Of a stretch of 64,000 bases of DNA, positions 11,833 to 31,610 are shown one piece after another; within the stretch, counting starts at the first letter, position 1, and every line of letters starts with the position of its first letter. This DNA is from an uncultured Erysipelotrichaceae bacterium. Its GTDB lineage: Bacteria > Bacillota_I > Bacilli_A > RFN20 > CAG-826. The DNA is taken from assembly GCA_902787955.1 (NCBI GenBank), contig CADAIJ010000010.1, forward strand, positions 1,942 to 65,941, read 5' to 3'. Position numbers and translations under genes: made by a program. The notes below the pieces were generated by a model. The model was not told where the DNA came from. It saw nothing but the letters and a program-made list of their open reading frames with translations, and searched no databases.

Positions 11833-11837
11833 AATTC

Positions 11838-12812: not shown

Positions 12813-12819
12813 TTGTCTA

Positions 12820-12853
12820 TTTTTAGTTTTACTACTACAAAAAAAGAGTGTCA
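12820..12853 (-). promoter_or_regulatory. promoter TTGACA-N16-TAAAAC for the riboswitch-2 operon
   Basis: Perfect -35 TTGACA (rc of 12848-12853), weak -10. The transcript would begin a few nt upstream of the aptamer. Confidence 0.4.
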
Positions 12854-15744: not shown

Positions 15745-15768
15745 AAAAAAGCCACCCTTACGGATGGC
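15745..15768 (-). terminator. intrinsic terminator ending the riboswitch-3 operon
   Basis: Minus-strand hairpin GCCAUCC-GUAA-GGGUGGC followed by UUUUUU, immediately after the stop of gene 15797-18883. Confidence 0.7.
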
Positions 15769-15796: not shown

Positions 15797-18700
15797 CTAT
15801 TTGTTTTGTCTAAGGGCTTCGATAAATGTTGATTTATCAAGTGGCTTATAGAAGTGATAACCTTGTAAGGCGATATCTTTAGAAATATCTCTAAGTAAGG
15901 CGTATTGATCACTATTTTCAACACCAACGAGGGCGACTTTAACACCGCGAGATAAGGCGACATCAGCGAGGTCTTTAATGGTTTGATATTTATTCTTATC
16001 TGTATCGATACCATTAACGAGATAACGGCCAATCTTAATCTCACTAAAGCCAAGTTCTTTTAAGACATCAACAGAGAGGAATGAACCACTGTATTGGTCA
16101 CAAATAAGAGCAATTCTTTGATGCAAGGATTTAGATAGTTTCTTAAATTCGTCTAAGTGGTCAAAGACTTCTTTTTCCGTAATTTCAAAACCCAGGAATT
16201 CTTTTGGGAAGTGATAGGTATTAATTAAGGAATAGATTGTTTCAAAGAAGTTTGGATCAGAGAAATAAGAGAAGTCGGTGTTAATAGTTAAACGATGGAA
16301 ACCATAAACCTTAAACGCGGTTAAACCAAATTGTTGATATAAATTACCAATATATTCAATTAAGGCGTTAGAAATAAGGGAGATCTTACCATTTTCCGCG
16401 GCAACCTTAACAAGTTCATCAGCGTTAAAGACAATCTTTCGATAATCATCAGCGATACGTAAGAGTAACTCAGCACCAAAGATGGCTTTGGTTCCTGCTT
16501 TAACCATTGGTTGAAGTAAGACAGAGAAGGTCTTATTACCAAATTGATCATCGATAACAGAGAGCATAAATCTCTTACGAGAGGCACTTCTAGAGTAATC
16601 ACTATCAGCGAAGTAGATGAAGTCTTTATTAGAAGCGTAGTTACCGCTATCTTTGAATTTCCAAGCAAACTTAATAAATTCTTCCGCTGTAGAGTAGCCC
16701 ATTGGATATGGGATTGGTAAATAAGTGATATTAAAGCTATTATGAGTTTCGTTATAGATATAATCTTCTTTAGAAGCTTCATAAATAGATTCAATAATAT
16801 TAACGACGTTAGCTTGACCAACTTCAGGAAGTAGGATAGCCACTGTATAGTTAGAGAAATGGAAGATATTATCTCTTCTAATGCCTTTCTCTTTAAGTCT
16901 TTGTAAGAAGCCTCTTTCTAAGAAGAGAGCGCCTTCGCTACCATATTTAGTTATTAATTCTTCTAAGTTATCAATATTAAGAAGTAATAAATATCCATGG
17001 GAGTTAACTTTATAGTAGTTACCCATTGAAATAACTAATGAAAGATAAGAGTTAATAAGTAAGTCACGGTCAAAACGATCTTCCACCGCTTCATTATTTT
17101 CAAGTAAACGAATGAACATTCTTCTTAAATAAGTGTTCTTAACGTTAACGGATAGAGATGTTTCGATACGTGAACCACTTTCGATTTCACTAACTTTCTT
17201 CTTTTCAGTTAGAATTGGACAATCTTTACATGGTGCATCTAAACCATATAAAACTTTGTAGCACTTCTCGCCCCACTTAATATTTGGGAATAAAGTAGGC
17301 ATATGTTGAGAGAAAGATGTTAGTTCATAAGATTCTGGGTTAACTCTATATAACGCGGTATTAGACGCTTGCAAGGTGGAGTTAATCTCTAAGAATGTTT
17401 CACTAAAGGTCATCTCTCTTTGGATATTTAAGATATATTCGCCTAAACGAGAAGTAACAACATATAAAGCTTCTCTAATATATGAATTGATACGGAGTTC
17501 ACGGCCATTTTCATTAAAGAAATAACACATACCCATGAGTTTTCCGCGGTCTAAAATCATATTATAGAAGCCACTTGTGATATTAATTTTGTCTAAGATT
17601 CTCGCTAAAGAAGGGTTAGTGTGCTTTCTTGTGGAGAAATAATATGAACCATCTTCTTCACGAACTTCACTAAAGACTTTTAGAATTTCATATTCAACGA
17701 TTTTGCCACGGTCAAAGTAGGTATTATTACCGTTTTCAACATGGATTATAGAATCATAACCTCTATGTCTATTTGAAATCGAAACAATACCAGCGCAGTC
17801 GATATTTAAGTGTTTAGCGAGTAATTTAAAGGTTGTTTCAATCTTCTCTAAGTTACTTTCATGATCCGCGACACTTAATGGCAAATCATGAAGACATTTT
17901 AAAATCTTAGTCATGACATTAAGTGACATTGAAGATTGAAGTATCTTTGAATTAGCGGTGTCAGAAAGACGATTTGGAATATAGAAGTTAATGACTTTAC
18001 CTTGACGTTTTGCGTATCGAAGGTCACTAAAGATTTCATTAACATCACTATATGGATAAGCGACTAAAGAGAATCTAGCGGGAATAGTAACTAAGCCATC
18101 ATATGTTTTCTTTGAGATGGATAAAGTTTTCATTAATGTGAAGAGTTGTTCATGAAGACAAGAAAGGGTATCAAAGTTTGGTAAATAAACATATATTCCC
18201 TTCTTTTCATCATCATTAATGATATAAAGGACATTTTCATATTCCTTAAATAAACTGATTGCATAAGAAATAACACGGTTAGTTTCTTCCTTAGTTAAGG
18301 TATCATGATCCATTTGATAATAGATTTCGATAACCGCGTTTCTAAAAGCCTGCGCAGAATTAATGATCGGAACTAAGTTTTCTTTAAATGATTCTAAGGA
18401 AACAATGTTTCTTTCTTTATCTAAGAAATCTAGTGGGATATTTTTATAACCATTAGAGAAATTAAGGAATTCAGTATCGTGAAGTTGAACTTTTAATTCA
18501 TCAATCGCTTTATTTAGTTCATCTACTTCATTAATTGATACAAAGTTAGAAGTGTATTTTTCAAGACTTTTAGAGGAATTAGTTAAGTTCTTATAGTTTT
18601 CTTTAGTGACGGAATAGATTCCACGATAGAAAACTTCAAGAGCGATTTTCACTCCAAAATAGACTGTTAAGCCGAACAAAACAAATAAAACCGAAATAAC

Positions 18701-18883
18701 ACTAATTAAGACAACTAATAGAATAGTGTTTGGTTCTTTTAAGTAGAAGAAAGTAAGTGGAACCCCTACTGCAAAGATAGTAATTAAAACGACAAAAGGA
18801 ATAGCTACCCCGAGGACCGCGGCAACTTTAAGAGATATTGGCTTCTTAAAAAGAAGGTTATTATGTTCTTGCTTATTAGACAT
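15797..18883 (-). CDS. membrane protein with degenerate GGDEF and degenerate EAL domains; candidate c-di-GMP receptor/scaffold
   Basis: Start at ATG 18883 (MSNKQ...) with AAGGAGGAG SD. 2-3 N-terminal TM helices. GGDEF-like region with the active site replaced (..HFSNYTVAILLPE). C-terminal EAL fold with LLQPMV, AELLLR, CDQYSGSF (in place of DDFGTGYSS), KIGRYL, VGVE. Confidence 0.6.
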   Translation of the reverse strand: MSNKQEHNNLLFKKPISLKVAAVLGVAIPFVVLITIFAVGVPLTFFYLKEPNTILLVVLISVISVLFVLFGLTVYFGVKIALEVFYRGIYSVTKENYKNLTNSSKSLEKYTSNFVSINEVDELNKAIDELKVQLHDTEFLNFSNGYKNIPLDFLDKERNIVSLESFKENLVPIINSAQAFRNAVIEIYYQMDHDTLTKEETNRVISYAISLFKEYENVLYIINDDEKKGIYVYLPNFDTLSCLHEQLFTLMKTLSISKKTYDGLVTIPARFSLVAYPYSDVNEIFSDLRYAKRQGKVINFYIPNRLSDTANSKILQSSMSLNVMTKILKCLHDLPLSVADHESNLEKIETTFKLLAKHLNIDCAGIVSISNRHRGYDSIIHVENGNNTYFDRGKIVEYEILKVFSEVREEDGSYYFSTRKHTNPSLARILDKINITSGFYNMILDRGKLMGMCYFFNENGRELRINSYIREALYVVTSRLGEYILNIQREMTFSETFLEINSTLQASNTALYRVNPESYELTSFSQHMPTLFPNIKWGEKCYKVLYGLDAPCKDCPILTEKKKVSEIESGSRIETSLSVNVKNTYLRRMFIRLLENNEAVEDRFDRDLLINSYLSLVISMGNYYKVNSHGYLLLLNIDNLEELITKYGSEGALFLERGFLQRLKEKGIRRDNIFHFSNYTVAILLPEVGQANVVNIIESIYEASKEDYIYNETHNSFNITYLPIPYPMGYSTAEEFIKFAWKFKDSGNYASNKDFIYFADSDYSRSASRKRFMLSVIDDQFGNKTFSVLLQPMVKAGTKAIFGAELLLRIADDYRKIVFNADELVKVAAENGKISLISNALIEYIGNLYQQFGLTAFKVYGFHRLTINTDFSYFSDPNFFETIYSLINTYHFPKEFLGFEITEKEVFDHLDEFKKLSKSLHQRIALICDQYSGSFLSVDVLKELGFSEIKIGRYLVNGIDTDKNKYQTIKDLADVALSRGVKVALVGVENSDQYALLRDISKDIALQGYHFYKPLDKSTFIEALRQNK

Positions 18884-19622
18884 TTTCTCCTCCTTTAATA
18901 ACGTCATTATGAGAAATCTCACCAATGCAGGTAACAATAGCTTTACCTACAGAGGAGAACTCTTGTAAGACTTTAATATAACTATCTGTGGTTGCTGGAG
19001 TGTTTAACACTCTTTCAACAACCTTAACTGTAACAAATGGAACTTTATTGATATAGGCTGAGATACAAACCCCAACAGAAGTACAGTCAAAAACTAAATT
19101 GTTTTTATGACCAAACATATATCCACCCGTTTCAATGTTAGCAATTTTATTAGATGTATCGATAATTGTGTTAGAAGATATAAAACTAGCGATTTTATAT
19201 TTAGAGAATGATCTTTTTTCAATAGAAGATGCGACTAATTTCATAATTTCTTCTTCTGATTTAAAGTTAGGTGGAAAGCCAGGAAGTTGACCTAAACGGA
19301 CATTAGCCTCTCTTATTTGGTCAACGTCTCCAGCGATAACTCGTTTTGATATGGCTATTTCACCAGGTTTAAAGTCATCGTTAAAAGCGACACATTTACC
19401 TACCACAAAGATTAAAAGAACGAAGTATTTCTCAATTAAATAGTTTGTAAGCATCGCAGAGATATAAGAAGTATAAACATCATAAACAAGTAAGACTTCT
19501 TGGTTAAAAATCTTACCAATTTGAACTTTATAGTTATTCATTACTACTTCTTCTCGACGGTCAGTCATGACACTTTCGAAATATAAAACGTCATCATGAA
19601 CGCTACCAAGAATCATAATCAT
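18876..19622 (-). CDS. PNP/UDP phosphorylase-superfamily protein (MTA/SAH nucleosidase-like)
   Basis: MIMILGSVHDDV...VGKCVAFNDDFKPGEIAI...ETGGYMFGH resembles MtnN (MKIGIIGAMEEEV...TGSAGGL..GDVVI...ATGDSF). Divergent; assignment tentative. Confidence 0.4.
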   Translation of the reverse strand: MIMILGSVHDDVLYFESVMTDRREEVVMNNYKVQIGKIFNQEVLLVYDVYTSYISAMLTNYLIEKYFVLLIFVVGKCVAFNDDFKPGEIAISKRVIAGDVDQIREANVRLGQLPGFPPNFKSEEEIMKLVASSIEKRSFSKYKIASFISSNTIIDTSNKIANIETGGYMFGHKNNLVFDCTSVGVCISAYINKVPFVTVKVVERVLNTPATTDSYIKVLQEFSSVGKAIVTCIGEISHNDVIKGGENV

Positions 19623-19624
19623 AA

Positions 19625-21166
19625 TTAACGTTTACCCTCCTTTCTTTCAAATGGATTAGAAATAAGGAATTTCTCGTATTCTGCTTTTGGAATTGGACGA
19701 GAATAATAGAAACCTTGAATTGTATCGCATTTCGCTTTCTTTAAGACTTCAACTTGATCTTTATTATCAACACCTTCAGCGATAACTTCGAGTTCGTTAG
19801 CTTGGCAAAGTTCGATTAAGAATTTAACAATCGCACTAGCTTTCTTATCGGATTCAATGTTATCAATAAAGGATTTATCAATTTTAACCGCATCAAATGG
19901 CATCTTTCTTAAGTTACCAATGTTGGAGAAACCGACACCGAAGTCATCCATTAAAACACGAATGCCATGGTCTCTAAGTTTACGAATAACAGAACTTGCC
20001 ATAAAGGTATTAGTTTGAGAAGTTGATTCGGTAATTTCAATTTCAATTAAGGATGGGTTGATATCGTGTTTTTCAATCGTGGAGATAACTGAATCAAGGA
20101 AGTTCATCGAGTAGAATTCATGTAAAGAGAAGTTAATTGATACAGGAAGCACTCTTCTACCTTTTCTTTTAGCTTCATTTAAATCTTCACAAACACGGTT
20201 AAACACATAAGTATCAATGCTATGGATTAAACCAGCGTTTTCAGCGATAAAAATGAATTTAGAAGGTTCTAATAAACCGTGTGTTGGAGAATTCCATCTA
20301 ACAAGAGCTTCACTAGAAACAAATCTTTTCGCGGTTAAAGAGAATTTAGGCTGATAATAAACAACAAATTCATTGTTGGTTAAGGCTTTAGTAATTTCAT
20401 CAATTTCGGATTTAGAGGAATGCTTACGGAAAGATTCATGATAGAAAGTTAAAGATTCGAAGTTTCTTTCACTAACATCACGAGCGATAGAAGCATTTTC
20501 AATATCCTCGATTAATGGAGATTCATAGTTAACTTCGGTAACACCAAAGAATGGTTGAACCCAGACATGTAAATCTTCATCCTCGGCGATTCTAAATAAA
20601 TCATTAGAAATAGCGTTAACTAGGTTTTTAATATGGTCATCTTCATCAGAAACAGTGTACACATAGAATAAACCCTTGTTATACGCGAAGGCACTATCAC
20701 GATGGAGTAAACCTTTATCTTTATCAAAATAAGAAGTTAAGAAGTCCGCTATTTTGGCAGAGAAACTAATAATAGATTCATCGTGAGAAGTGTTCTCCAT
20801 GACTGATTGGTTCGCCGCGGAGAAGATAGTAATATATTGTTTTTTCTTACGGTTTAAGAACGATTTTTTAAGAAGAGACACTCTAACTTCAAAAGACGCT
20901 AAGTTAAAGAATGTTGTCTTTTTACCTAAGGCGTATAAGTTTTCATTTTCAAGGTTAATCTTCTTTTGAGTTTCTTGAGTAAATCTCATGAAGAAGAACA
21001 TTGCTGCGGAAATAACAGCAGGAACAAGAATAATTAATAAAATAGCAATAGCAGGATGTTCCTTAAGCATGCCATTAAGTTCAAAAATGAATGAAAGAAC
21101 AAAGCCAGCAAGGAAAATGGTGCCTGTTGTTATAAATAATGCAAGATATCTTCTACGTAGGTTCAT
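19625..21166 (-). CDS. membrane-anchored c-di-GMP phosphodiesterase (2 TM + degenerate GGDEF-like + EAL)
   Basis: EAL domain with YYQP, EALVRW, DDFGVGFSN, KIDKSF, EGVD and QGFYYSRP motifs all intact. Start overlaps the stop of the upstream SipW gene. Confidence 0.75.
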   Translation of the reverse strand: MNLRRRYLALFITTGTIFLAGFVLSFIFELNGMLKEHPAIAILLIILVPAVISAAMFFFMRFTQETQKKINLENENLYALGKKTTFFNLASFEVRVSLLKKSFLNRKKKQYITIFSAANQSVMENTSHDESIISFSAKIADFLTSYFDKDKGLLHRDSAFAYNKGLFYVYTVSDEDDHIKNLVNAISNDLFRIAEDEDLHVWVQPFFGVTEVNYESPLIEDIENASIARDVSERNFESLTFYHESFRKHSSKSEIDEITKALTNNEFVVYYQPKFSLTAKRFVSSEALVRWNSPTHGLLEPSKFIFIAENAGLIHSIDTYVFNRVCEDLNEAKRKGRRVLPVSINFSLHEFYSMNFLDSVISTIEKHDINPSLIEIEITESTSQTNTFMASSVIRKLRDHGIRVLMDDFGVGFSNIGNLRKMPFDAVKIDKSFIDNIESDKKASAIVKFLIELCQANELEVIAEGVDNKDQVEVLKKAKCDTIQGFYYSRPIPKAEYEKFLISNPFERKEGKR

Positions 21167-22098
21167 TATTTGCCGCCTTTCTTTTTCATCATTTCATCTA
21201 ATAATTCTTGTTTGAGTTTCTTTTTCTCTTCTTCACTGAAGCCATCTAATGAACTTGAATCAGATCCTCCTGGCTTTTTATCGCCTTTTGGATTATCTCC
21301 TCCACTAGCGCCTTCTTCAGGTTCTTTAACCGCCTTAAATATATCTAAGACAGAAGTGACAATAAGATATGAAGCTGGAATTAAGAGTAAAACAATTAAA
21401 CCCCAAGGAGTTGTAATGAAATACAAAAGTCCACCTAAAACAGGACTATTTAATATTACCACACCAAAGAGTTCTTTTTCGGTGAAAGTTTGATATTGAC
21501 CGAATTGGGATTTATAGCCTTCTTTATTAGTGCCAGAGGTAAAGAAGATATATCTTCCTTCGCCAAGAGGCTTAGATTCATCAATTTGAATTTCTCTTAA
21601 ACGGTGGGTCATTGGATAATTAGTTGGTGAAGTTGGATCACTTGGACCAATTTCCTTATCCCATTTAGTAATTCCGCCAGTAGTAGGAACATATGGGTAT
21701 CTTTGGTTATCGAAGAAAGTCAAATCAATAGTTTCTTCTTTTAAATACATTTGATAGATAGTTTCACAATCGTGTTTATGAGTAACAATTGCGGTATTTA
21801 CACCATATTCAGGAAGCATGGAATCAGTTTCAATAAGGAATGTTGAATAACCAAAGGCAACATTGCGGCCATAGTTTTCACCGCGATGAATCATTCCATC
21901 AATAACAAAAACACCAGCAAACACAAATACTGCGGCAAAGAAACCAGTAATAACCCATTCGATTATACGACGGGCTTTCGATTTTGGTTTCTTCTCTTTT
22001 TTATCAGTAGAGTCTTGAGGTTTAGCTTCATTATTAGCTTCACTTTCAGTAGCAGGTTTTTCTTCTACTGGAGTTTCTGTTTTCTTTTCTTCATCCAT
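21166..22098 (-). CDS. sipW: SipW-type (archaeal/ER-type, family S26B) signal peptidase I with long charged N- and C-terminal extensions
   Basis: TM helix; Ser box ..LIETDSMLPE (cf. SipW VLSGSMEP); His box MTHRLREIQI...FFTSGTNKEG (cf. SipW VTHRIVDIT...FKTKGDNN); C-terminal TM LGGLLYFITTPWGLIVLLLIP. ~50-aa acidic/K-rich N-tail and ~60-aa G/S/D/K-rich C-tail, which the ~190-aa B. subtilis SipW lacks. Confidence 0.7.
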   Translation of the reverse strand: MDEEKKTETPVEEKPATESEANNEAKPQDSTDKKEKKPKSKARRIIEWVITGFFAAVFVFAGVFVIDGMIHRGENYGRNVAFGYSTFLIETDSMLPEYGVNTAIVTHKHDCETIYQMYLKEETIDLTFFDNQRYPYVPTTGGITKWDKEIGPSDPTSPTNYPMTHRLREIQIDESKPLGEGRYIFFTSGTNKEGYKSQFGQYQTFTEKELFGVVILNSPVLGGLLYFITTPWGLIVLLLIPASYLIVTSVLDIFKAVKEPEEGASGGDNPKGDKKPGGSDSSSLDGFSEEEKKKLKQELLDEMMKKKGGK

Positions 22099-22100
22099 AG

Positions 22101-23795
22101 TTATTCAGCTTCCCCTCCTTCCTCTTTCTTTTCTTCATCTAAAAGTTTTTCAGAACCATCCTCATCGTTTTGTTCTTCGGATTCATCTTCTACACTTTGT
22201 TCTTCGGAATCTTTATTTTCTTCTAAAGACTCTTCATCCTCTTCAGATTCTTCAGCAGGAATTTCTTCATCTTCTTCCGCAGGAGTTTCTTCATTTTCAT
22301 CAGCTGAAAGTTCTTCAATAGGTTCTTCAACTACTTCATTTTCTTCAGTTAAAGGCTCAGAAGTCGCTTCGATTGGACTATTTGTCTCATCCACAGGAGT
22401 TTCTGCAGGTTTTTCTTCAATAACTGGTTCTTCAGGAATATCAAATTCATCAGTCTTAGCAGTATCGATAAGTTTTTGTCTTTCTTCTTCGATACGTTGT
22501 TGTTCGGCAAGACGAATATCTTCAAGACGTTTACGTTCAGCCTCAGCTTCTTCTTTTTGTCTTTTAGCGATAATATTTTGTACTTTCTTTTCCCAAGCTT
22601 TTTGTTCTTTTTCTTTACGCTTGGCGAGCTTCTCTTTTTCAGATTGTTCTTCTTTATTCTTTTTCTTTTGTTCTATCTCTTCTTTGTAGTATTCTTTTTC
22701 GAGTTTAGTTGGACGGACTGGGAGATCTTCTTTAACTAAAGAATTAAGATATTGTTGATATGCTTCATCAACACGAACATATTCCACTGGTCCTTTTAAA
22801 AGCTCATCATAGATGAATGGCTCATCGTCAAGAGATTTAAGAAGTTTTGGTTTATATACTCTATTTTTAGCTTTGAGTTTGTTCTTTTTGTCTTTAGATT
22901 TAAGCGCTAAATAGTTGGCAAACATTACCATATTGAGCTCTTTAAGTTCTTTTTCATTATAATTAAAGACATCTTCATTAACTTTATAAGCAACTCCTAA
23001 GTTTTCATAACGTTGAATGAAGTTAAATAATTCATAACATTTATGATATTTTGGGTTCTTTCTTAAGATGTTAGTCATAACGATAGGAGCACGAACATCG
23101 TGATCGGTCTTCATCGTTCTCATGAAGTTAGAGTTATAGTAATAAAGCACATATTCTCTAATATTTTTAATTCTTTCGATATATGAGTTAGATGATTGAG
23201 CAACCGCGTTTTCAGCGTTAGAACGAACTTTGACTTTGGTTTCTACTTCAACTTCTTCACCACCGATAATGGCTTTAGATTTGTAATATAAAATTTCTTC
23301 ATCGTGTAAAGGAGCGAAACCTTTAACGAATTCATAACGTTTTTCAACGAAAATAACTAATCTTCTAACAAGTGTAGCGATAAATCTATTTTCGTAAGTA
23401 TGAATATCAGTTTCGTTAGCGATATTTAAAATTTTAGAAGGAATAACTTGTCCACGTTCATCAACAGTTTTGATGTATTGAGTGTGGCTTGCTAAATGTC
23501 GAACTGATTCAGCGTTTGTTTTTCTAGCTAATTCAACAGGAACTAAATTAGCAACTGAAGCGGTAACTTCACGAGGATTAGTAATAATATCACCTAAGTC
23601 AAATAAGCAGTCTTCAATCTTTTTAATCCAGCTTAAGTCGAAGGAAGAGGATTCAACTCTATCCATTCTCATATAGGAATTTTGGCCTTCAGAAAGATGT
23701 GTCAAAGCTTCACGAGCGGTTTCGTCAGTGAAGAGTGATTTTGTCTTGGTGATATATCTACCAAAGAGTTTTTTGTTACGATTACGAACTGCCAT
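22101..23795 (-). CDS. hypothetical protein: ~330-aa globular N-domain + ~230-aa E/K/D-rich coiled-coil and acidic tail; possible partner of the adjacent McrB-like GTPase
   Basis: Tightly coupled downstream of the McrB-family gene (12-nt gap). The C-terminal half is a low-complexity EEQ/KEE/EEDEE repeat. I could not see a PD-(D/E)xK nuclease motif. Confidence 0.4.
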   Translation of the reverse strand: MAVRNRNKKLFGRYITKTKSLFTDETAREALTHLSEGQNSYMRMDRVESSSFDLSWIKKIEDCLFDLGDIITNPREVTASVANLVPVELARKTNAESVRHLASHTQYIKTVDERGQVIPSKILNIANETDIHTYENRFIATLVRRLVIFVEKRYEFVKGFAPLHDEEILYYKSKAIIGGEEVEVETKVKVRSNAENAVAQSSNSYIERIKNIREYVLYYYNSNFMRTMKTDHDVRAPIVMTNILRKNPKYHKCYELFNFIQRYENLGVAYKVNEDVFNYNEKELKELNMVMFANYLALKSKDKKNKLKAKNRVYKPKLLKSLDDEPFIYDELLKGPVEYVRVDEAYQQYLNSLVKEDLPVRPTKLEKEYYKEEIEQKKKNKEEQSEKEKLAKRKEKEQKAWEKKVQNIIAKRQKEEAEAERKRLEDIRLAEQQRIEEERQKLIDTAKTDEFDIPEEPVIEEKPAETPVDETNSPIEATSEPLTEENEVVEEPIEELSADENEETPAEEDEEIPAEESEEDEESLEENKDSEEQSVEDESEEQNDEDGSEKLLDEEKKEEGGEAE

Positions 23796-23807
23796 TTAGA
23801 CCTCTAA

Positions 23808-25325
23808 TTAGATTGATTTAAGTAAGTTTTGAATATAGGCGTGAGCCATTGGGAAAGTATTCTTTCCGTATAATTTATCGAGTTGAACTTCGAGTTCTTT
23901 AAGTTCGTCTTTTAAGAAAGCGATATTTAAAGATTCGAATTTCTTTAAGATTTTGTTTGTAAAGATAAAGTCAAAGCCATCGGTTTCTTTACCACCTGTC
24001 GCAACAAAGACTGGGATAAAGGTATCGAGTTGTTTTAAGATACGGTTACCAAAGGCGAGTTTGAATTTTTTAATGACGAAGTTATCAAGAGTTTCAAATT
24101 TCTTAAGCATAGCTTCGGAAATTGGATAGTTAGAAACAGCTTCATCATACAATGATTTGATTTGAGCGTATGGAACAGAAATAGCTTCTTGGTTTTCTGC
24201 TTCAAATGGACGGCCTTTATCATCAAAGAATAAGGAAACCGCACGGTCATAGACCTTATCAGAAATTGTATAGGTACTATCATCGTTGTTCGCAGTGCCA
24301 AAGAAGATGATGTTTTGTGGAATTAATAACTTACCATCTTTGAGGTTCTTTGGATCCCCTGCCATTGGAGATGGAATTAAGTCGATTAACCAGTCAGCTG
24401 GATCTCTCATTTCCATGACGGATAAGAATTCAGCAAAGTAGTATTCAATACGTGCTAAGTTCATTTCATCGAGGACGATAACGTTTAAGTCTTTACGGTA
24501 AGTAGAAACATATAATGCTCTTAAGAATTCAGATTCATTGAACTTCTTAGTGAATTCGTTATAGTAACCGATAAGTTCAGATCTATCTTTCCAAGATGGT
24601 TGAACTGGAATGATAGAGGAGTCAAAACTAAAGAATTTACCTAAAGCATAGGCCATGGAAGTTTTACCTGTACCAGAGATACCTTCTAAGATAATTAGCT
24701 TAGAAGTGGCCATACCTGCAAATAATTGTCTAATTGTTTCAATTTTATAGTAAAGATGTAATTGGCTTGCCGCATAATTTCTAAAAGCGTTACATAATTC
24801 TTCAAGTGATAAGCCTTCTTTATATGGAACAGACATATCAACACCGTTATAGGAATTATCAACACGGACAAGTTTTGGGAAACGAGATGTAACTTCTTCG
24901 ACAACTTCTTGGTCTTGTTTAGACATTTCACCAGGTTTAACGCCCATATAAGCAGTCTTTAAGTTGAGGATTTTATCTTTTTCTTGAACAGCTTGATAGA
25001 GTTCAAATGATAATCTTTCAACTTGACGATAGAGTTCATCTTTTTCAAGTTCTCTTTTATAGAATTTGACGTATTTACGGATTAAAAGATATAAGCCAAA
25101 TCCAATACCTCCAATTAAACCGATAAATAAGAGGAGGAAAAGAATCCAGAAGAACCAGAACCAGAAATCTGGTGGATTGGAATAATGTTCAAGTAACGAA
25201 TTATAGTAATTGAAGTTAGCAGGAACATCCGCCCACGGGGAAGCGAAGGCTTTGTTAAAGAAAGTGCCTAGATCGCTAAAAAATCTGATTAATAATTCTC
25301 TTAAGTATTCAAAGTATGCACTCAT
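23808..25325 (-). CDS. membrane-anchored McrB-family AAA+ GTPase (AAA_5)
   Basis: Walker A GISGTGKTSMAYALGKF; Walker B VIVLDEMNLARIEYYFAEFLSVMEMRD (cf. McrB FIIDEINRANLSKVFGEVMMLMEH); NxxD motif FFGTANNDDST (cf. McrB GLMNTADRS). Unusual N-terminal TM segment FWFWFFWILFLLLFIGLIGGIGFGLYLLI. Confidence 0.65.
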   Translation of the reverse strand: MSAYFEYLRELLIRFFSDLGTFFNKAFASPWADVPANFNYYNSLLEHYSNPPDFWFWFFWILFLLLFIGLIGGIGFGLYLLIRKYVKFYKRELEKDELYRQVERLSFELYQAVQEKDKILNLKTAYMGVKPGEMSKQDQEVVEEVTSRFPKLVRVDNSYNGVDMSVPYKEGLSLEELCNAFRNYAASQLHLYYKIETIRQLFAGMATSKLIILEGISGTGKTSMAYALGKFFSFDSSIIPVQPSWKDRSELIGYYNEFTKKFNESEFLRALYVSTYRKDLNVIVLDEMNLARIEYYFAEFLSVMEMRDPADWLIDLIPSPMAGDPKNLKDGKLLIPQNIIFFGTANNDDSTYTISDKVYDRAVSLFFDDKGRPFEAENQEAISVPYAQIKSLYDEAVSNYPISEAMLKKFETLDNFVIKKFKLAFGNRILKQLDTFIPVFVATGGKETDGFDFIFTNKILKKFESLNIAFLKDELKELEVQLDKLYGKNTFPMAHAYIQNLLKSI

Positions 25326-25328
25326 AAA

Positions 25329-26480
25329 TTACATCTCCCTTAATATCTTAAATTCAATTTGAGCAAGGAACTTTGCTCCCATAGTTGTATTAATACAATA
25401 TAAATCCCAGCCTTCTAAGTATATAGAAAGCACGAATTTAGATGGTACATTTCGATAAACTGGAATAACGATTCCATCATCTAAATCGAATACATTTGTT
25501 TTGTCATAAGCCTTCTCAGTTTTGATAGATAAGCCACCTTCTTGAACAGCTTTATCATAATCAAATGGATGAGCATATTCATGTGAACTCGCGGTAAAAG
25601 CAGAAAATTTGCTATTTGGAGGTAAAATTGTACCAGTTCCGACTTCACCATAATATGAATCTGAGAAACGTTCATTTAAAACTTCACCATAAATAGTTTC
25701 ATAACGGCTGCTATTTTTAGTAAAGGTGTCATAGTAAGAATCTTTATCAATATCAAGTCTACCACCTAATAAAGTTGGTTTTGTTTTAGCAGTTTTGTTT
25801 GGATTATAAATATAGTAGTTATAATCATCACCGTTATTGACAAGGATTGAGATTCTCATCGCATTCGCTAAATTGTTTAAGCATTCATAGATATCATCTT
25901 CTTCGTAGCCACGGAATCCAACATCTTTAGATTCAAATAATTCGTGAGCAATTCTTCTATTCTCATCTATATCTGGAAGAATGGAGGTAGTTTCAGGATT
26001 GATGCTGACGTAAACGTCATCATCAGCGATTAAATAAAGATCTTGAGAATAGTAATTATTTAAGTAATCTCTTAAGTTATGATCTTCGTCATAAACTTTA
26101 TTAGATACTTCCTCTAAACGTGGTTCTTCTTCAAATGATAAAGCAGTTTGATATTCATAGAATTTTGGTTCTTCCGCTCTATCAGCGATTGGAGCAGTTT
26201 TATCAAACCATTTTGACTCATACATGGAAGAAACTGGAGAGAAGATTCTAGTGTGTTTTAATTCATTATCTTTAAGTTCGTTTTTAGTGTAACTTTCGAT
26301 GTCATCGATATCTTTGGTGGTTGAGATTCTTAAATCTCTAGTGGCTTTCATCTCAATATCAATCGTGTCTACATAGGCGCGCGATGAAGAAGCAAACCAA
26401 GCAACTGATACAGATAAAGAAATCGTCGCAAGTGAAATAACTGCTACTAAAGTAGAGATAAATGCGCGACGAATATTCAT
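25329..26480 (-). CDS. SipW-cognate secreted protein, TasA/camelysin-like paralog
   Basis: N-terminus MNIRRAFISTLVAVISLATISLSVSVAWFASSS; C-terminus ..SIYLEGWDLYC...AKFLAQIEFKI. Confidence 0.55.
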   Translation of the reverse strand: MNIRRAFISTLVAVISLATISLSVSVAWFASSSRAYVDTIDIEMKATRDLRISTTKDIDDIESYTKNELKDNELKHTRIFSPVSSMYESKWFDKTAPIADRAEEPKFYEYQTALSFEEEPRLEEVSNKVYDEDHNLRDYLNNYYSQDLYLIADDDVYVSINPETTSILPDIDENRRIAHELFESKDVGFRGYEEDDIYECLNNLANAMRISILVNNGDDYNYYIYNPNKTAKTKPTLLGGRLDIDKDSYYDTFTKNSSRYETIYGEVLNERFSDSYYGEVGTGTILPPNSKFSAFTASSHEYAHPFDYDKAVQEGGLSIKTEKAYDKTNVFDLDDGIVIPVYRNVPSKFVLSIYLEGWDLYCINTTMGAKFLAQIEFKILREM

Positions 26481-26482
26481 AA

Positions 26483-27586
26483 TTAATCAACTCTATTAAT
26501 TTGGAAAGTTAATCCAAGATTAAATTTGTGAGAAATCTCCTCATTAACAACATGGTGGTCCCAACCTTCAATGTAAATGGTTAATGTAGCTTCTCCTAAC
26601 GCACTTACAGTGTTCGCGGTTGTACAAATTTGTTTACCACCACTTAATACACCAGTACCATCATCAATAGGCTTGATGGAATTTAAAGTTTCATAATCTG
26701 CTTCAAGTGGACTTAAAGCATCCATGCTATCGTACCCATATACGCCTGGGAAATGTTTGCCAACAAAAGTTGATGGATCAGTATTACCAACTCCATTGAC
26801 ATCAACAAAATCACTCTCAGTTGCATAATATGTTCTAGCAGCACTTGGATTTGTGACATGGCCATAAACGATTTCGTTATCAGAATCATCATGATCGTAG
26901 AAACCATCATCATTAAGGTCTAAAAGACCCCCTACAGCATTGGAGGCAGCCCCTCCTTCTGCGGATGGATTGAAGATATACTTTGTATCTCCGTTCACAT
27001 GTACACGAATAGATTTATAAATCTCGCCATCGGTAAGGATATTCTTTGGATTTGCATCCGCGCCAGAAATCCAAACCTTTTGGTTTCTCGCATAGTAATT
27101 TGGAGATTCTGAAACTTCGTTAGTTCTAATGATTCTAAACACAAACGGAATCTGCACATATTGATTCTTTGTAGCAATATTATCGTTTTGTGCATGGCCT
27201 GCAATTAAGCATTCGGTCAATGATAAAGTATCACCATAGTGATATTCATTTGATGAAACTGGTCTTAATTCATTAGTGGCATAGCCAGAGAGTTCAAGAT
27301 ACCCGTTAATGGCGTCGGAATCGAGACCTTTACCAGGCTGAGCCCAAGCATACGAAACAGCATCTATAACTTCGGTAGTTAAACCGTAGCTAGATAGATT
27401 TTTGTCTGTTTTGATACCTATTTGTAATTGCTCACCAACAGTGACAGATGTTCCAGAATAGGACATTGTCGCTTTAGTGACGTAATTGAACCATGAAATG
27501 GATCCAGCGATAGAACCTAAGAAGGTGAACATAGTCGCTGCAATCAAAGTCGTGGTTAATAGGCCCGCTTTTCTTGAACTCTTCAT
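26483..27586 (-). CDS. SipW-cognate secreted protein, TasA/camelysin-like paralog
   Basis: N-terminus ..FLGSIAGSISWFNYVTKATMSYSGTSV; C-terminus ..TIYIEGWDHHV..HKFNLGLTFQI. Close paralog of 27699-28670. Confidence 0.55.
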   Translation of the reverse strand: MKSSRKAGLLTTTLIAATMFTFLGSIAGSISWFNYVTKATMSYSGTSVTVGEQLQIGIKTDKNLSSYGLTTEVIDAVSYAWAQPGKGLDSDAINGYLELSGYATNELRPVSSNEYHYGDTLSLTECLIAGHAQNDNIATKNQYVQIPFVFRIIRTNEVSESPNYYARNQKVWISGADANPKNILTDGEIYKSIRVHVNGDTKYIFNPSAEGGAASNAVGGLLDLNDDGFYDHDDSDNEIVYGHVTNPSAARTYYATESDFVDVNGVGNTDPSTFVGKHFPGVYGYDSMDALSPLEADYETLNSIKPIDDGTGVLSGGKQICTTANTVSALGEATLTIYIEGWDHHVVNEEISHKFNLGLTFQINRVD

Positions 27587-27698
27587 TAGCTATTTCCTTT
27601 TTAAAATACGTTTAAAGTAAATAATATTTAATAATTAAAGATTTTATATAAATATAATTAAGACGAATAAATGTAGTATTTACAATACTAAGTTATTG

Positions 27699-28670
27699 TT
27701 ATGCGTGGTCGACGTGAGGTTTAACAGCAAATCTCATACCAACTTGGAAGTCGTGGATATATTTAGAGACATCCCAAATAGATTTAGCTGGAGTACCTAA
27801 TTCTGCCCAACCTTCTAACCAAATGGTAACTGTGAACTTTAAAGCTTGGTTATTACCTTTAGTGTTAGTTTGACCTAAAGCAGTTTTACCATCAACACTG
27901 AAGTCTGCAACAGAATCATCAACATCAAAAGAACTTAACTTTCCAGCAACTTGGGTTAAAGTATCATCGCCATATTTTGTAGCAACTGTTTCGTCCCATT
28001 CATAACCTGTAGACTTATCATTAGCTGTATCGTTATTTAAATCTAAATAACCACCTAATGTAGTTGTGACATCATCAGTATGGGTAGTAATTAAGTTACC
28101 AGTTGTACCATTAGTAATATGGAATCTTAAACCTTTAGCAAAGTCGGCAGCTTGAACACCAGCGCCAGCATAACCTGCACCAGTCTTAGCGTTAGCAGCA
28201 ACTGTTAAGTCAGCAAGATAGACATCCTTTTCAAGGAATTTTTCTTCAGCCGCACCATTAATGTCTTTAACTCTAAGATAGACATCATATTGTAAATAAG
28301 CAGCATTATCAGCAGCCATCCAAGTAGAATAATTAAAATATTGATAAATTGGGTTGCCTTTGAATGATGCTGGAGCGGTTGCTAAATTCTTAGCACGTGC
28401 TGCACCTTCGGTGACAGGTTGTAATTTCATACCTGTATGTGTATCGGCGGCAGCGATAATTTGAGCGCTAGTTAAATCAGAATACCAGTTAGTGCCATCA
28501 AGGCTTATTTGAAGAGCTTCAGTACAGTGAACAGAAGTTCCCATATAAGACATTGTGGCTCTGGTAGAATATTGGTACCATGCGACAGATCCTGAAAGGG
28601 AACCGACTAAACCTGCTCCCGCGAGAAGACCTAACGCACCAACAATGAGTTTTTTATTATTAGTTTTCAT
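27699..28670 (-). CDS. SipW-cognate TasA-like protein, Ala/Gly/Thr-rich (candidate major structural subunit)
   Basis: N-terminus MKTNNKKLIVGALGLLAGAGLVGSLSGSVAWYQYSTRATMSYMGTSV; C-terminus TIWLEGWAELG...HDFQVGMRFAV. Higher GC and Ala-rich composition than its neighbours. Followed by a hairpin + U-rich attenuator in the 112-nt gap. Confidence 0.55.
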   Translation of the reverse strand: MKTNNKKLIVGALGLLAGAGLVGSLSGSVAWYQYSTRATMSYMGTSVHCTEALQISLDGTNWYSDLTSAQIIAAADTHTGMKLQPVTEGAARAKNLATAPASFKGNPIYQYFNYSTWMAADNAAYLQYDVYLRVKDINGAAEEKFLEKDVYLADLTVAANAKTGAGYAGAGVQAADFAKGLRFHITNGTTGNLITTHTDDVTTTLGGYLDLNNDTANDKSTGYEWDETVATKYGDDTLTQVAGKLSSFDVDDSVADFSVDGKTALGQTNTKGNNQALKFTVTIWLEGWAELGTPAKSIWDVSKYIHDFQVGMRFAVKPHVDHA

Positions 28671-29490
28671 AAGCGTTTATTTCAACTCCTAATTTCATGT
28701 TTGCACCTTCTGGTGCTTCGAGACTTGAATTTGATTGAGGGTCTTCACCTTCAACCCAAGTCACGATTGTGTAACGTTTCATATCACCTGCATTGAAATT
28801 AGAAACTGGAATAGTAGCGATCGTAGTGTCATTTTCGAACTCTTCTGCAAATCCAGGGAATGGGTTAGCAGCGTCCGCTTTTGATAAAGGAATAGAAATA
28901 TACTCTTTTTGAGTAGGGTTTCCATCCTCATCATAGTTAATGCCTTCACTTCGTTTTGCGTACACGGTGTAATCGTGATCAGTGGAAATGCCATCATTTT
29001 CATAGATCATAACTCTAACAAGGTTATCAATGTATCTTCCATCTTTAGATGGTTTGTTTTCAGTGATATTAACCTTAAAGTCATATCTACAAGTAGAGTT
29101 TCCTACGTTTTTAAGGAAGAATGTGTACTTAAAGAAATCCATAGAGACGACTTCTTTGTTCTTTGAATCATAGTTAGCACCATAAAGGTAATCATAACTA
29201 TCATTGTCGATACGAGATTCGTCTTCTCTGATTTTCTCAAAAGTGTATTCCTCGTATGTCTTAATCTCACCAACGTGTAAATAAGATGTAGGATTACTGA
29301 AAGATGATTTTTCACTTAAAGCGATCTGAACACCCCCAGTTCCTAAAGTAACTGTGAATGTACCTGTGTATTGACCAAGAAAAGCGACTATCGCTAATGA
29401 AGTTACTCCACCTGCGCCAACAAGTGCAATAATAGCGGCAGCCTTTTTTCTTCGGTGCTTTTTCGCATACTCAATTTCTAGTTCTTTCAT
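28660..29490 (-). CDS. SipW-cognate secreted protein, TasA/camelysin-like; first gene of the riboswitch-3 operon
   Basis: N-terminus KKHRRKKAAAIIALVGAGGVTSLAIVAFLGQYTG; C-terminus IVTWVEGEDPQS...ANMKLGVEINAYEN. No obvious SD before the ATG. Confidence 0.5.
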   Translation of the reverse strand: MKELEIEYAKKHRRKKAAAIIALVGAGGVTSLAIVAFLGQYTGTFTVTLGTGGVQIALSEKSSFSNPTSYLHVGEIKTYEEYTFEKIREDESRIDNDSYDYLYGANYDSKNKEVVSMDFFKYTFFLKNVGNSTCRYDFKVNITENKPSKDGRYIDNLVRVMIYENDGISTDHDYTVYAKRSEGINYDEDGNPTQKEYISIPLSKADAANPFPGFAEEFENDTTIATIPVSNFNAGDMKRYTIVTWVEGEDPQSNSSLEAPEGANMKLGVEINAYEN

Positions 29491-29543
29491 AGATGATAAT
29501 AGTGTTGCTCAAATAGCTTGAGCTAAATGTCCCAAAGGAAGGA

Positions 29544-29606
29544 AATAAAAACCAGTTGCCTATCATCCAATCAATTGGCGGAATATTTCATCCTTTAAGG
29601 CAACTG
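29544..29606 (-). terminator. riboswitch-controlled terminator (alternative to aptamer P1)
   Basis: Minus RNA: CCAGUUGCC (the aptamer's conserved 3' element) pairs perfectly with downstream GGCAACUGG (9 bp), followed by UUUUUAUUU. Confidence 0.65.
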
Positions 29607-29668
29607 GCTATCTTTTTCAAGACCCTATAGCTTTGCGACCCCATATCTCTATGAGTGTGCTTTTATCT
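29598..29668 (-). promoter_or_regulatory. c-di-GMP-I (GEMM) riboswitch aptamer
   Basis: Minus RNA: AAAAGCACACU-CAUAGAGAUAUG-GGGUCGCAAAGCUAUAGGGUCUUGAAAAAGAUAGCCAGUUGCCUU. GNRA (GAGA) hairpin, UCGCAAAGC, GGGUC...GAU, GCCAGUUGCC. The first element is a variant (GCACAC instead of GCAAACC). Confidence 0.75.
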
Positions 29669-29675
29669 CGCTTAC

Positions 29676-29703
29676 ATTATACACACCCCAAAACAAGATG
29701 CAA
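29676..29703 (-). promoter_or_regulatory. promoter TTGCAT-N16-tgTATAAT (extended -10)
   Basis: -35 TTGCAT = rc of 29698-29703; TGTGTATAAT = rc of 29676-29685. The TSS falls just 5' of the aptamer. Confidence 0.45.
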
Positions 29704-29749
29704 ATATTTTTTTAAAAACTTTTTTTCTCAATAATATGTAATCTTTATA

Positions 29750-29780
29750 AATAAAAAATAGGACTTTCGACCTATTCCTT
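29750..29780 (-). terminator. intrinsic terminator (bidirectional) after the small membrane protein gene
   Basis: AAUAGG-ucgaaagu-CCUAUU hairpin followed by UUUUUUAUUU on the minus strand, with an A-run on the other side. The stop codon lies inside the stem. Confidence 0.65.
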
Positions 29781-30143
29781 ATTTTCTTCGTTTTGGAGAT
29801 CCTTGAGAAGTTCTTTTCTGAGAGCTTCTTTTTGTTCTTCACTAAGATCTGCAACTTTTGGAGTTTCTCTTTTAGCAGACTTTCTGACATAGATTACTAA
29901 ACCGATGATATTGACTGCTAGAAGAACGAATAATGGAAGAACAAATACAAGACCGTAGAATGTTGGATTATTTTGGAGGAATCCAATTAATCCATCTGCT
30001 TCTCTAACATCTGCAGGACCCTTACCTATTGTGGAAGCAAGCATAATTATAGAGATAACTAATAAGAATATAGTTAAACCAACATCTAAGGCAATGCCTA
30101 TAAGAAGTAATATTTTCTTACCAGTTAGTTTTTTAAGTTCCAT
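29772..30143 (-). CDS. small membrane protein (2 TM, K/E-rich C-terminal tail), hypothetical
   Basis: MELKKLTGKKILLLIGIALDVGLTIFLLVISIIMLA...GLVFVLPLFVLLAVNIIGLVIYV then a charged tail. Confidence 0.5.
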   Translation of the reverse strand: MELKKLTGKKILLLIGIALDVGLTIFLLVISIIMLASTIGKGPADVREADGLIGFLQNNPTFYGLVFVLPLFVLLAVNIIGLVIYVRKSAKRETPKVADLSEEQKEALRKELLKDLQNEENKE

Positions 30144-30256: not shown

Positions 30257-31444
30257 CTATGCAGCGTTTGGAATATTGATGGCTTCAAAGGATAAGTAAG
30301 AAACCATTGTATCGTAAATGGTGTCAATAGTATTGACGATATTATCATCAGTACCTTCAAACCATGCAACAACAGTGTATTGTAAGGATACAATAGTTCC
30401 AGCTTGTGCTTTATCAAAGTAGCCAAGGAATAATGGAGAACCTGTATATGTGGTTCTAACTTCGCCTGTTAAGCTTTCTGGATTGGTAGCATTAGTGCTA
30501 TCAATAAGAGCAGGAGCTACATAAGAAGCAGTTTTACCATCGGTTGCAAATGCACCATTGACTGCAGCGGCTCCAACTACGTGTTTAGCAAGATGTTCGC
30601 CGCTGATTGGTCTGAAATCAGACCAGACACGTGTTTCGGCATGAGAATTTGTGCCAACAAATGCAAGGCGGAAACCTAAACCGGTATCAACACGATATGG
30701 GTTTTTAACATAAACATCAACAGCTTCACCTGATGCACCTCTTGCTTCAACATATGTGGTACAAGCAGCGGTTGTATAGTAAGTACTTGCAGGAATAGCT
30801 GTATTTTCTGGGATTTGGAACGCATAAGATAAAGCAGTACTTCTGGTAAAAGCAGTTTTAGCAGAAGTTTCTACAAAACCAGCTTCAATAGCTGTGGTAC
30901 ATTTTTCATCAGAATAGAAAATGCCAGTGCCAACAGCAAAGCCAACTGGAAGTGTAACTTTCTTAGCCATAATTGCTTCATTAGCTTTGAAGAAGAGACC
31001 AACGTCTTTTGCAGCAGCGCTAGAAAGAGCTAATTTGAAATTCATTGTAAATGTAAAAGCGGAATAGATTTCTTCATTTGTGTCTCTTTTGAGACCATTA
31101 GCGCCAGTAGTCATATCAGCATCTTCTAATGCAACTTTTTTGCCGACTTTATCGCCATCAGCATTTGGTGCAAAGATGTAATGATCTTCAGTAATGTGAT
31201 CAAAAGAAGCGTCAGTTAAAACTTTGCCACTATCAACAGAAACAATATTGGATTCAACATCTGTTCCAAGGCCTTTGCCCATTTCACAAACGAGGTTATC
31301 TTTAGTATTAACAACTGCGAATTCACCAACAGTTGTATTGAATAATCTGTTAGCAGTGAACCATGCAACGGTACCAGTAACGGAAGCCGCTGTGGAAAGT
31401 AATAAGACTGCTAAAGCAGGTACTATAATTTTTGATTTTTTCAT
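30257..31444 (-). CDS. SipW-cognate TasA-like protein, Ala/Thr/Gly-rich; candidate major fibre subunit with its own strong promoter
   Basis: N-terminus MKKSKIIVPALAVLLLSTAASVTGTVAWFTANRLFNTTVGEF; C-terminus ..YTVVAWFEGTDDN...MVSYLSFEAINI (cf. TasA KLQFSFEATQ). AAGGAG SD. Confidence 0.55.
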   Translation of the reverse strand: MKKSKIIVPALAVLLLSTAASVTGTVAWFTANRLFNTTVGEFAVVNTKDNLVCEMGKGLGTDVESNIVSVDSGKVLTDASFDHITEDHYIFAPNADGDKVGKKVALEDADMTTGANGLKRDTNEEIYSAFTFTMNFKLALSSAAAKDVGLFFKANEAIMAKKVTLPVGFAVGTGIFYSDEKCTTAIEAGFVETSAKTAFTRSTALSYAFQIPENTAIPASTYYTTAACTTYVEARGASGEAVDVYVKNPYRVDTGLGFRLAFVGTNSHAETRVWSDFRPISGEHLAKHVVGAAAVNGAFATDGKTASYVAPALIDSTNATNPESLTGEVRTTYTGSPLFLGYFDKAQAGTIVSLQYTVVAWFEGTDDNIVNTIDTIYDTMVSYLSFEAINIPNAA

Positions 31445-31580: not shown

Positions 31581-31610
31581 ATTATATTAAGTTTCTTTTT
31601 TTCTTGTCAA
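31581..31610 (-). promoter_or_regulatory. consensus sigma70 promoter TTGACA-N18-TATAAT with ~130-nt structured 5'UTR
   Basis: rc of 31605-31610 = TTGACA; rc of 31581-31586 = TATAAT. The 5'UTR contains three GCAAAG repeats and a long-range complementarity CGACAAAG / UUUUGUCG. Confidence 0.5.

Follow-up and report, generated by a model that had tools for sequence, protein, structure and literature searches.

The window analysed here is a stretch of 64,000 nucleotides (nt) from an uncultured Erysipelotrichaceae bacterium (GenBank assembly GCA_902787955.1, contig CADAIJ010000010.1, positions 1,942 to 65,941) with a GC content of 34%. Its minus strand carries ten co-directional open reading frames (ORFs), running from 29490 to 15797 behind a cyclic di-GMP (c-di-GMP) riboswitch. 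In order they specify four exported or anchored proteins (T1 to T4), a GTPase of the McrB family, its McrC-like partner, a signal peptidase of the SipW/SEC11 type, an EAL-domain protein, a protein with the MTA/SAH-nucleosidase (MTAN) fold and a degenerate GGDEF-EAL membrane protein. With a probability of about 0.55, we read this locus as specifying a c-di-GMP-induced surface fibre, the assembly, gating or anchoring of which depends on a repurposed McrBC GTPase.

According to this reading T1 to T4 would be exported by Sec, and the peptidase, using Ser93 and His165, would cut T2 to T4 after a small-x-small motif and before an invariant tryptophan (...SVA/W, the slash marking the predicted cut). 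The new N-terminus (WYQYSTRA... in T2) would then act as the donor strand joining beta-sandwich subunits into a TasA-like fibre, with T2 as the likely major subunit, T3 and T4 as minor ones and T1 as a possible membrane anchor or nucleator. A ring of the McrB-like NxD GTPase would be held at the cytoplasmic face of the membrane by a transmembrane (TM) helix and a coiled coil, and the DUF2357 partner would plug into this ring and stimulate it as McrC does. Joined by the tail-bearing peptidase, GTPase and partner could serve as a platform, powered by GTP, by which the assembly of the fibre is gated, driven or anchored. The co-transcribed EAL enzyme would lower c-di-GMP and so provide delayed negative feedback, with the degenerate GGDEF-EAL protein as a putative c-di-GMP receptor and the MTAN-fold protein, a presumed pseudoenzyme, as an accessory.

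Operon and leader

The ten ORFs are separated, in gene order, by −11, 112, 2, 3, 12, 2, −1 and 2 nt, and at the ninth junction the genes overlap, by 8 nt with ATG 18883 as the start of the last gene or by 62 nt with TTG 18937. A single intrinsic terminator closes the array on the minus strand (15745..15768), its hairpin at 15751–15768 (GCCATCCGTAAGGGTGGC) being followed by TTTTTT. An earlier note, made from the letters of this DNA, had proposed that the ten genes are one riboswitch-headed unit, and this is supported. That note had also placed an attenuator in the 112-nt gap between T2 and T3. The attenuator has been dropped because the gap is unstructured (minimum free energy (MFE) −8.8 kcal/mol, z=+1.17, no stable fold), yielded neither a terminator nor a sense promoter when scanned, and varies in length from 27 to about 105 nt among relatives.

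Transcription is predicted to start from a sigma-70-like promoter, TTTGCA-17-TATAAT (29676..29704, minus strand; 10/12 matches), which lies directly upstream of a c-di-GMP-I (GEMM-I) aptamer at 29596..29671 on the same strand. The aptamer is a full-length match to the Rfam model RF01051 (54.9 bits, E=5.6e-8; gathering score 35 bits), and the two elements together account for the range 29598–29703 to which a GEMM riboswitch and promoter had been assigned. Comparable promoters (TTGACA-17-TAAAAT) stand ahead of the riboswitches in two of the related loci described below, L064 of Acholeplasma granularum and L032.

The expression platform (about 29541..29608, minus strand), recognized from the sequence and from the fold of the leader, consists of a 12-bp terminator hairpin and a U-run. 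Both appear directly after the aptamer when the leader is folded to its MFE (−56.7 kcal/mol, z=−2.0). The 5' arm of the hairpin, CCAGUUGCC, doubles as the 3' strand of the aptamer helix, and for this reason the riboswitch is predicted to be an ON switch in which the ligand prevents termination: c-di-GMP bound to the aptamer would hold CCAGUUGCC in the aptamer helix, block the terminator and allow the ten genes to be transcribed. A terminator sharing its arm in the same way is present in A. granularum (L064 6224–6252). Among 21 relative loci scanned, 13 have a c-di-GMP-I riboswitch directly before T1; several loci of Ruminococcus and Lachnospiraceae without the riboswitch have a small EAL gene ahead of T1 instead. 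Control of a surface structure by such an element has a parallel in Clostridioides difficile pilA1, a pilus operon under a c-di-GMP riboswitch.

Tandem c-di-GMP-I riboswitches occur in several relatives, before T1 in L064 (6126–6401) and L043 (6129–6314) and elsewhere in the locus in L027 (14065–14254) and L037 (20883–21085). In L064 each of the two has a TTGACA-17-TAAAAT promoter of its own.

The GTPase pair and its conservation

The fifth gene (23808..25325, minus strand) specifies a 505 amino acid (aa) AAA+ GTPase of the McrB family, NxD type. It aligns to E. coli McrB over 241 columns (hhalign 97.3%, E=2.6e-11), and the top matches of its family profile among Protein Data Bank (PDB) sequences are the McrB entries 6hz4, 6ut6 and 7vsr (E about 3e-5). 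The motifs comprise a Walker A GxSGTGKT, a Walker B LDEMN and N346-x-D348. Seven residues are invariant in 57 relatives (G215, G218, G220, K221, D286, N346 and D348) and three nearly so (S217, T219 and E287); the position aligned to the aspartate of the E. coli NxxD signature (D349) is not conserved in these relatives. Residues 1–140 are not a DNA-binding domain. They comprise an amphipathic segment of about 50 aa, a predicted TM helix (51–84), a basic cluster and a coiled-coil-like segment (84–125), after which the core begins. This layout is kept in 21 diverse orthologs, in which a charged helical segment (LLEEIxxLN...EKDxILxLKV) follows the TM helix. The TM-anchored McrB-like GTPase of the earlier note is thus borne out.

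The McrC-like partner (564 aa; 22101..23795, minus strand) is made up of a DUF2357 core at about residues 20–160, a conserved region at 160–345 and an acidic tail. The Pfam DUF2357 domain is detected in 13/39 partner orthologs at E<=0.01, and in 7/7 examined individually it scores above the gathering threshold. Alignment of the family profile to an annotated DUF2357 protein is significant (hhalign 95.5%, E=1.6e-8), with homology ending at about residue 160. The core is thus a homolog of the N-terminal DUF2357 part of McrC, and the E/K-rich tail previously remarked upon comprises the last 224 residues, with 68 Glu and 26 Lys. Tail length among orthologs ranges from about 100 to about 1900 residues, the longest being in L016 (9017–15760). 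Many partner orthologs (e.g. L003 11522–13816) end in an additional conserved domain of about 50 aa, IPGxFxVKTxxGYYV...GGKxVK, which has no Pfam match and is missing from the partner protein in the window.

No match to PDDEXK_7 was obtained in the 39 partner orthologs. When 77 orthologs were aligned, conservation past residue 160 was confined to R208, P237, T241, N242, K246 and N247. No common D...(D/E)xK set remained there, and within residues 160–236 neither an acidic residue nor a lysine reached a conservation of >=85%. A candidate nuclease motif, E166...E183xE185xK187, is invariant in close relatives and was rejected, being gone from the 77-ortholog alignment. The partner profile does not align significantly to E. 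coli McrC with hhalign; over a 15-column alignment Tyr218 of the partner falls at the place of the catalytic Lys259, from which inactivation may be suspected but not concluded.

McrBC is the textbook GTP-dependent restriction enzyme, in which the McrB hexamer is activated by the DUF2357 domain of McrC, inserted into it. The locus shares with E. coli McrBC the homologous GTPase core (with Walker A, Walker B and the signature region aligned), the DUF2357 partner and the adjacency and order of the two genes. It differs in that a membrane anchor replaces the DNA-binding domain, in its NxD rather than NxxD signature, in a partner without a detectable PD-(D/E)xK domain or conserved triad, and in its context, an operon for secretion and signalling.

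The earlier note held that a McrB-like GTPase in such an operon had no described precedent. This does not stand, since an architecture named CoCoPALM was introduced, in one paragraph, by Bell et al. (eLife 2024; PMC11090510) in a survey of McrBC systems, its analysis being deferred to a forthcoming publication. As described there, an FtsB-like domain, with TM and coiled coil, is fused to McrB GTPases of the NxD clade, the McrB and the McrC homologs both bear coiled coils, and signal peptidases are associated. The family was found in that census of Type IV restriction systems, and its NxD clade is common to the CoCoNuTs (PMC11090510). An NxD McrB GTPase, a DUF2357 partner and the association with a signal peptidase are all present at the window locus. 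As to the fourth feature, the TM and coiled-coil-like architecture is there; homology of the GTPase N-terminus to FtsB was not reproduced with Pfam models, DivIC/FtsB giving no match even at E<=1. With three of the four stated features, and the architecture of the fourth, the locus is classed from its sequence as CoCoPALM-type.

The likeness includes the NxD GTPase with TM helix and coiled coil, a DUF2357 McrC homolog with a long charged tail, adjacent peptidase genes and occurrence in Bacillota; secreted substrates, a c-di-GMP riboswitch, a link to EAL proteins and loss of the nuclease triad, by contrast, are not in PMC11090510. The name CoCoPALM was not found in other papers of the literature searched, nor in the PMC11090510 supplements examined. 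The same search found no paper with TasA-like subunit families sharing a junction, or with coupling to a c-di-GMP riboswitch and EAL proteins, in this architecture, and none reporting nuclease-triad loss or obligatory co-occurrence for loci of this type.

Scanning species-representative genomes confirmed at least 590 relatives, and matching protein clusters number more than 8000. The proteins of the window have near-identical matches in metagenomic contigs, and close relatives are metagenome-assembled genomes labelled 'Erysipelotrichaceae bacterium' or 'Bacilli bacterium', mainly from rumen and gut. The best 80 of the at least 590 relatives, surveyed for taxonomy, belong to uncultured Bacilli, A. 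granularum ATCC 19168, Acholeplasmataceae, Izemoplasmatales and Anaeroplasma, and also to Ruminococcus sp. FC2018, Lachnospiraceae, Oscillospiraceae and other Clostridia. Four loci labelled Bacteroides uniformis, Hallerella and Bacteroidales (L009, L012, L021 and L043) were left out of the evidence on taxonomic range; their labels are probably binning errors, which is suspected because their genes are 47–68% identical to the Bacilli lineage.

Co-occurrence was counted in 39 related loci with enough flanking DNA, which span Acholeplasmatales, Izemoplasmatales, Ruminococcus, Lachnospiraceae and Oscillospiraceae. The GTPase gene adjoins T-family genes in 39/39 and SipW-like genes in 39/39, as the neighbourhood comparison proposed in the earlier note would have it, and the partner is present in 37/39. 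All ten genes recur in the same order in relatives with a GTPase identity of 54–77%. Compared within one pair of genomes, the GTPase has 77% identity, the partner 55% and a T2-like protein 28%, a gradient to be expected if a conserved machine acts on an exposed substrate that evolves fast. There is strong support for the operon being one functional unit.

It was also considered that the GTPase and its partner are an unrelated restriction cassette inserted by chance into a fibre operon. McrB/McrC ancestry by itself is what speaks for such an event, which we hold to be very improbable indeed. The gaps about the pair, of only 3, 12 and 2 nt, are too short to hold a promoter of its own, and flanking repeats were looked for around it and none was found. 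The codon usage of the two genes correlates with the rest of the window (r=0.90 and 0.93; other genes 0.87–0.98), and their GC content is native. The same adjacency is seen in all related loci from Acholeplasma to Ruminococcus, and a TM helix stands in place of the DNA-binding domain, the nuclease triad having been lost. These observations support the conclusion that the GTPase pair belongs functionally to the operon.

A second alternative is that the locus is an immune system, its GTPase pair sensing or aborting phage infection in the manner of the CoCoNuT and McrBC relatives; phages using the fibre as receptor might, for example, be the trigger, and the secreted proteins and peptidase the sensors or effectors. 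Several findings point this way. The family comes from a census of Type IV restriction and shares the NxD clade with the CoCoNuTs, the GTPase matches the PADLOC defence-candidate model PDC-M26A (E=8e-39), its closest non-membrane relatives are plasmid McrB/DUF2357 pairs, and the T proteins evolve fast. Yet a domain that would bind DNA or RNA is missing, and so is a conserved nuclease triad. Conservation of the GTPase is unusually high (72–83% identity among the top 120 matches), and the locus is syntenic in small genomes, unlike patchy, mobile defence islands. Its composition is native, and collections of plasmid and phage records contain no full-length copy of the membrane form, only partial matches to the GTPase core, with DUF2357 neighbours of the defence type. 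Control is through c-di-GMP, a lifestyle signal, with EAL enzymes built in. An immune function is accordingly regarded as improbable.

Exported proteins and signal peptidase

Each of T1 to T4 has a single N-terminal hydrophobic segment. T2 (323 aa; 27699..28670, minus strand) is a secreted beta-sandwich protein and the candidate major fibre subunit, with the signal peptide ...GSVA/WYQYSTRA. Its paralogs T3 (367 aa; 26483..27586, minus strand; signal ...GSIS/WFNY) and T4 (383 aa; 25329..26480, minus strand; signal ...VSVA/WFAS) are clearly related to it and to each other over their full length (hhalign T2–T3 99.9%, E=4.5e-36; T3–T4 99.9%; T2–T4 99.5%). T1 (276 aa; 28660..29490, minus strand), an exported or anchored protein with its hydrophobic segment at residues 16–40, matches T2 to T4 only locally (hhalign 96–97% over 43–50 columns). 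A T1-like gene is present in 38/39 loci, making it the most widely kept of the T genes.

These proteins had been described as four paralogs of the TasA type with SipW-cognate signals. That T2 to T4 are paralogous and exported is upheld; T1 shares local similarity only, and the assignment to known families is not. No match of T1 to T4 to Pfam or NCBIfam was obtained at E<=0.1, TasA/Peptidase_M73 included, and the SipW-cognate signal model TIGR04088 had no match at E<=10 in the N-terminal 60–75 residues of eight T proteins, so that the likeness of the junctions to a SipW-cognate signal (small-x-small/aromatic) is a visual one alone. A 92-sequence profile of T2 found no TasA chain among PDB sequences, giving a single chance match to an SH3 domain.

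The fold was approached with AlphaFold2 (AF2), which from the single sequence gave a predicted local distance difference test score (pLDDT) of 34. The model built with the 92-sequence alignment is a beta-sandwich (pLDDT 81.6, body >90). With this model Foldseek ranked 7pnb and 8aur first, weakly (E=0.02–0.03). Conservation in the T2 family is highest at the junction, G-S-x-x-G-x-V-A-W-Y-Q-Y-S-T-R, in which A30, W31 and Y34 are invariant; its conserved residues 30–37 are disordered in the monomer model. Small residues occupy positions −1 and −3 ahead of the invariant Trp in T2 to T5 and in both exported proteins of a second operon (see below). By analogy with TasA, a SipW-type cleavage site with a donor strand behind it would be expected to look like this.

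The signal peptidase (310 aa; 21166..22098, minus strand), the gene of which starts 2 nt downstream of that of the partner, has two hydrophobic segments (44–72 and 210–257). S93 and M94 of the xSMxP box and H165 of the THR box are invariant, and the profile matches human SEC11A (7p2p; E=1.7e-17). The NCBIfam SipW model is matched by 19/19 family members, which agrees with the SipW-type peptidase first proposed. The protein of the window by itself scores weakly against this model (6.6e-5) because of an insertion between the two catalytic boxes. Its charged cytoplasmic tails (LKxELLxEM) are conserved.

TasA is cut at the junction GTWA/AF, which resembles those of the T proteins. TasA subunits are assembled through N-terminal donor-strand exchange (PMC9674648). 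The tapA-sipW-tasA operon of Bacillus subtilis and the sipW-calY/tasA loci of the B. cereus group likewise place a dedicated SipW-type peptidase beside exported beta-sandwich substrates. The present locus is unlike them in that its T proteins lie outside Peptidase_M73 and TIGR04088 and number four to seven paralogs rather than one or two, in its obligatory cytoplasmic GTPase pair, in its regulation by a c-di-GMP riboswitch and not by SinR, and in its occurrence also in wall-less Acholeplasma. Judged by its defining features it belongs neither to the TasA sequence family nor to the McrBC restriction systems.

The T proteins could instead be monomeric surface adhesins or matrix proteins, with the GTPase pair as a membrane-bound regulator or quality control of the peptidase that might, for instance, gate cleavage or pull out signal anchors left uncleaved. 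Two SipW-like genes directly flank the GTPase pair in distant loci, that of A. granularum for example, and the conserved charged tails of the peptidase could contact the coiled coils. The wide size range of the T family (212–767 aa) is adhesin-like, further A/WF proteins occur in operons with an adhesin of the BspA-type leucine-rich repeat (LRR) kind, and the fold lends a fibre no more than moderate support. Two features nevertheless favour a fibre: the best-conserved segment of T2 is the N-terminus left after cleavage, its disorder in the monomer model being typical of a donor strand, and several paralogs sharing one N-terminal junction resemble sets of major and minor pilins. The adhesin explanation is thus considered unlikely.

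c-di-GMP proteins, the reading weighed, and neighbouring elements

The product of the eighth gene (513 aa; 19625..21166, minus strand) is a membrane-anchored EAL protein (Pfam EAL 2.2e-69) with the motifs YQP, EALVR, N, EITE, DDFGVG, KIDK, EGVD and QGF. Except for EGVD, which stands for EGVE, the motif set is full, and the protein is probably the active phosphodiesterase it had been taken for, a claim to which this variant position attaches a reservation. The MTAN-fold protein (248 aa; 18876..19622, minus strand) had been called nucleosidase-like, which holds for its fold (Pfam PNP_UDP_1 3e-10) and not for an active enzyme. When it is aligned to E. coli Mtn the catalytic Asp197 is replaced by R and the ribose-binding Glu174 by T, and both are lost in 11/11 operon orthologs, so that it is probably a pseudoenzyme. 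The protein also gives a weak NCBIfam match to the cytoskeletal protein Fib of Spiroplasma, the N-terminal domain of which is likewise MTAN-like.

The last gene (15797..18937, minus strand) specifies a membrane protein of 1046 aa whose true start is probably ATG 18883. Its degenerate GGDEF-EAL character is confirmed (Pfam EAL 1.3e-33, GGDEF 0.006). The EAL motifs read ELLLR, KIGR, in which the Asp of KxD is lost, and VGVE, in which the first Glu of EGVE is lost; DDFG is absent. With these losses the protein fits a receptor better than an enzyme and is a candidate c-di-GMP receptor.

Several points weigh against the fibre with a GTPase-dependent step. The members of the system are known from genes, sequence comparison and models alone. 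TasA and related fibres are not known to require an NTPase in the cytoplasm, and the argument for a motor role is therefore one from gene linkage alone. The nearest outside relatives of the GTPase core are the plasmid-borne, defence-type McrB/DUF2357 pairs and PADLOC PDC-M26A already mentioned, and residues 160–345 of the partner may hide a cryptic nuclease fold. In the EAL protein EGVD replaces EGVE, the orthologs carrying either form.

A broader reading, advanced tentatively and with considerable doubt, is that the locus represents an unrecognised class of filament. It would follow the logic of type IV filaments with TasA-like donor-strand subunits, a SEC11-type peptidase and a domesticated McrBC GTPase motor, the whole being switched by a c-di-GMP riboswitch. 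The McrBC-derived motor would have lost its DNA-binding and nuclease functions, and the class would be conserved from wall-less Acholeplasma to rumen Clostridia. Type IV pili, the pseudopili of type II secretion systems and archaella are comparable in logic only, having major and minor subunits with a shared junction, a peptidase and a membrane-associated hexameric NTPase. Every component of the present locus is of different origin: its subunits are beta-sandwiches, its peptidase is of the Ser/His SEC11 type and would act outside the membrane, and its NTPase is a McrB-family GTPase of the AAA+ class. A platform protein was not recognised.

Should the proposed GTPase-dependent fibre be correct, an immune motor has been domesticated for surface biogenesis, with DNA binding and cleavage exchanged for a membrane anchor, and a first GTP-dependent step is proposed for fibres of the TasA type, whose assembly is regarded as spontaneous. 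That McrBC should be repurposed to this end would surprise specialists, although the architecture itself has precedent: CoCoPALM is already known, and what appears new against the literature searched is that the subunits are TasA-like, that c-di-GMP is in control and that the nuclease triad has been lost. The system is common, as the number of matching stretches in species-representative genomes indicates, and it abounds in the Bacilli and Clostridia of rumen and gut, whose mechanisms of adhesion are poorly known. Its ON riboswitch, built-in phosphodiesterase and degenerate receptor would make a simple, testable circuit, and A. granularum ATCC 19168 and Ruminococcus sp. FC2018 are culturable carriers.

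Outside the riboswitch unit a further exported protein, T5 (30257..31444, minus strand), has a ...GTVA/WF junction and its own promoter at 31581–31610 (a perfect 12/12). Its N-terminus matches those of T2 (hhalign 95.9%) and T4 (93.4%), and it is likely to be an additional client of the SipW-type peptidase. T5 and the gene for a small protein with two TM segments (29772–30143, minus strand) lie just upstream of the riboswitch, and both are kept there in close relatives.

A second c-di-GMP-I riboswitch (12742–12821, minus strand; Rfam, 66 bits) heads another operon at 2320–12821. This operon specifies two proteins with a ...TFA/WF junction (11838–12716 and 10288–11832, minus strand) that show weak similarity to T5, a 1047-aa membrane protein (7161–10304, minus strand) and a 1597-aa lipoprotein with BspA-type LRRs (2320–7113, minus strand). 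Because the operon is without a peptidase of its own, its TFA/WF proteins probably depend on the SipW-like peptidase gene at 21166–22098. The same layout of a second operon is found in A. granularum (L064 13907–16948).

A third c-di-GMP-I riboswitch (180–260, plus strand; 59 bits) lies ahead of a gene for a GGDEF diguanylate cyclase (339–1814; Pfam 9.5e-29), and the two could form a positive-feedback arm on the same signal. Between the two riboswitch operons of the minus strand, at 12879–14984 (also minus), is the gene for a lipoprotein of 701 aa that combines internal repeats, a linker rich in Ser and a domain resembling InlB B-repeats (Flg_new_2).

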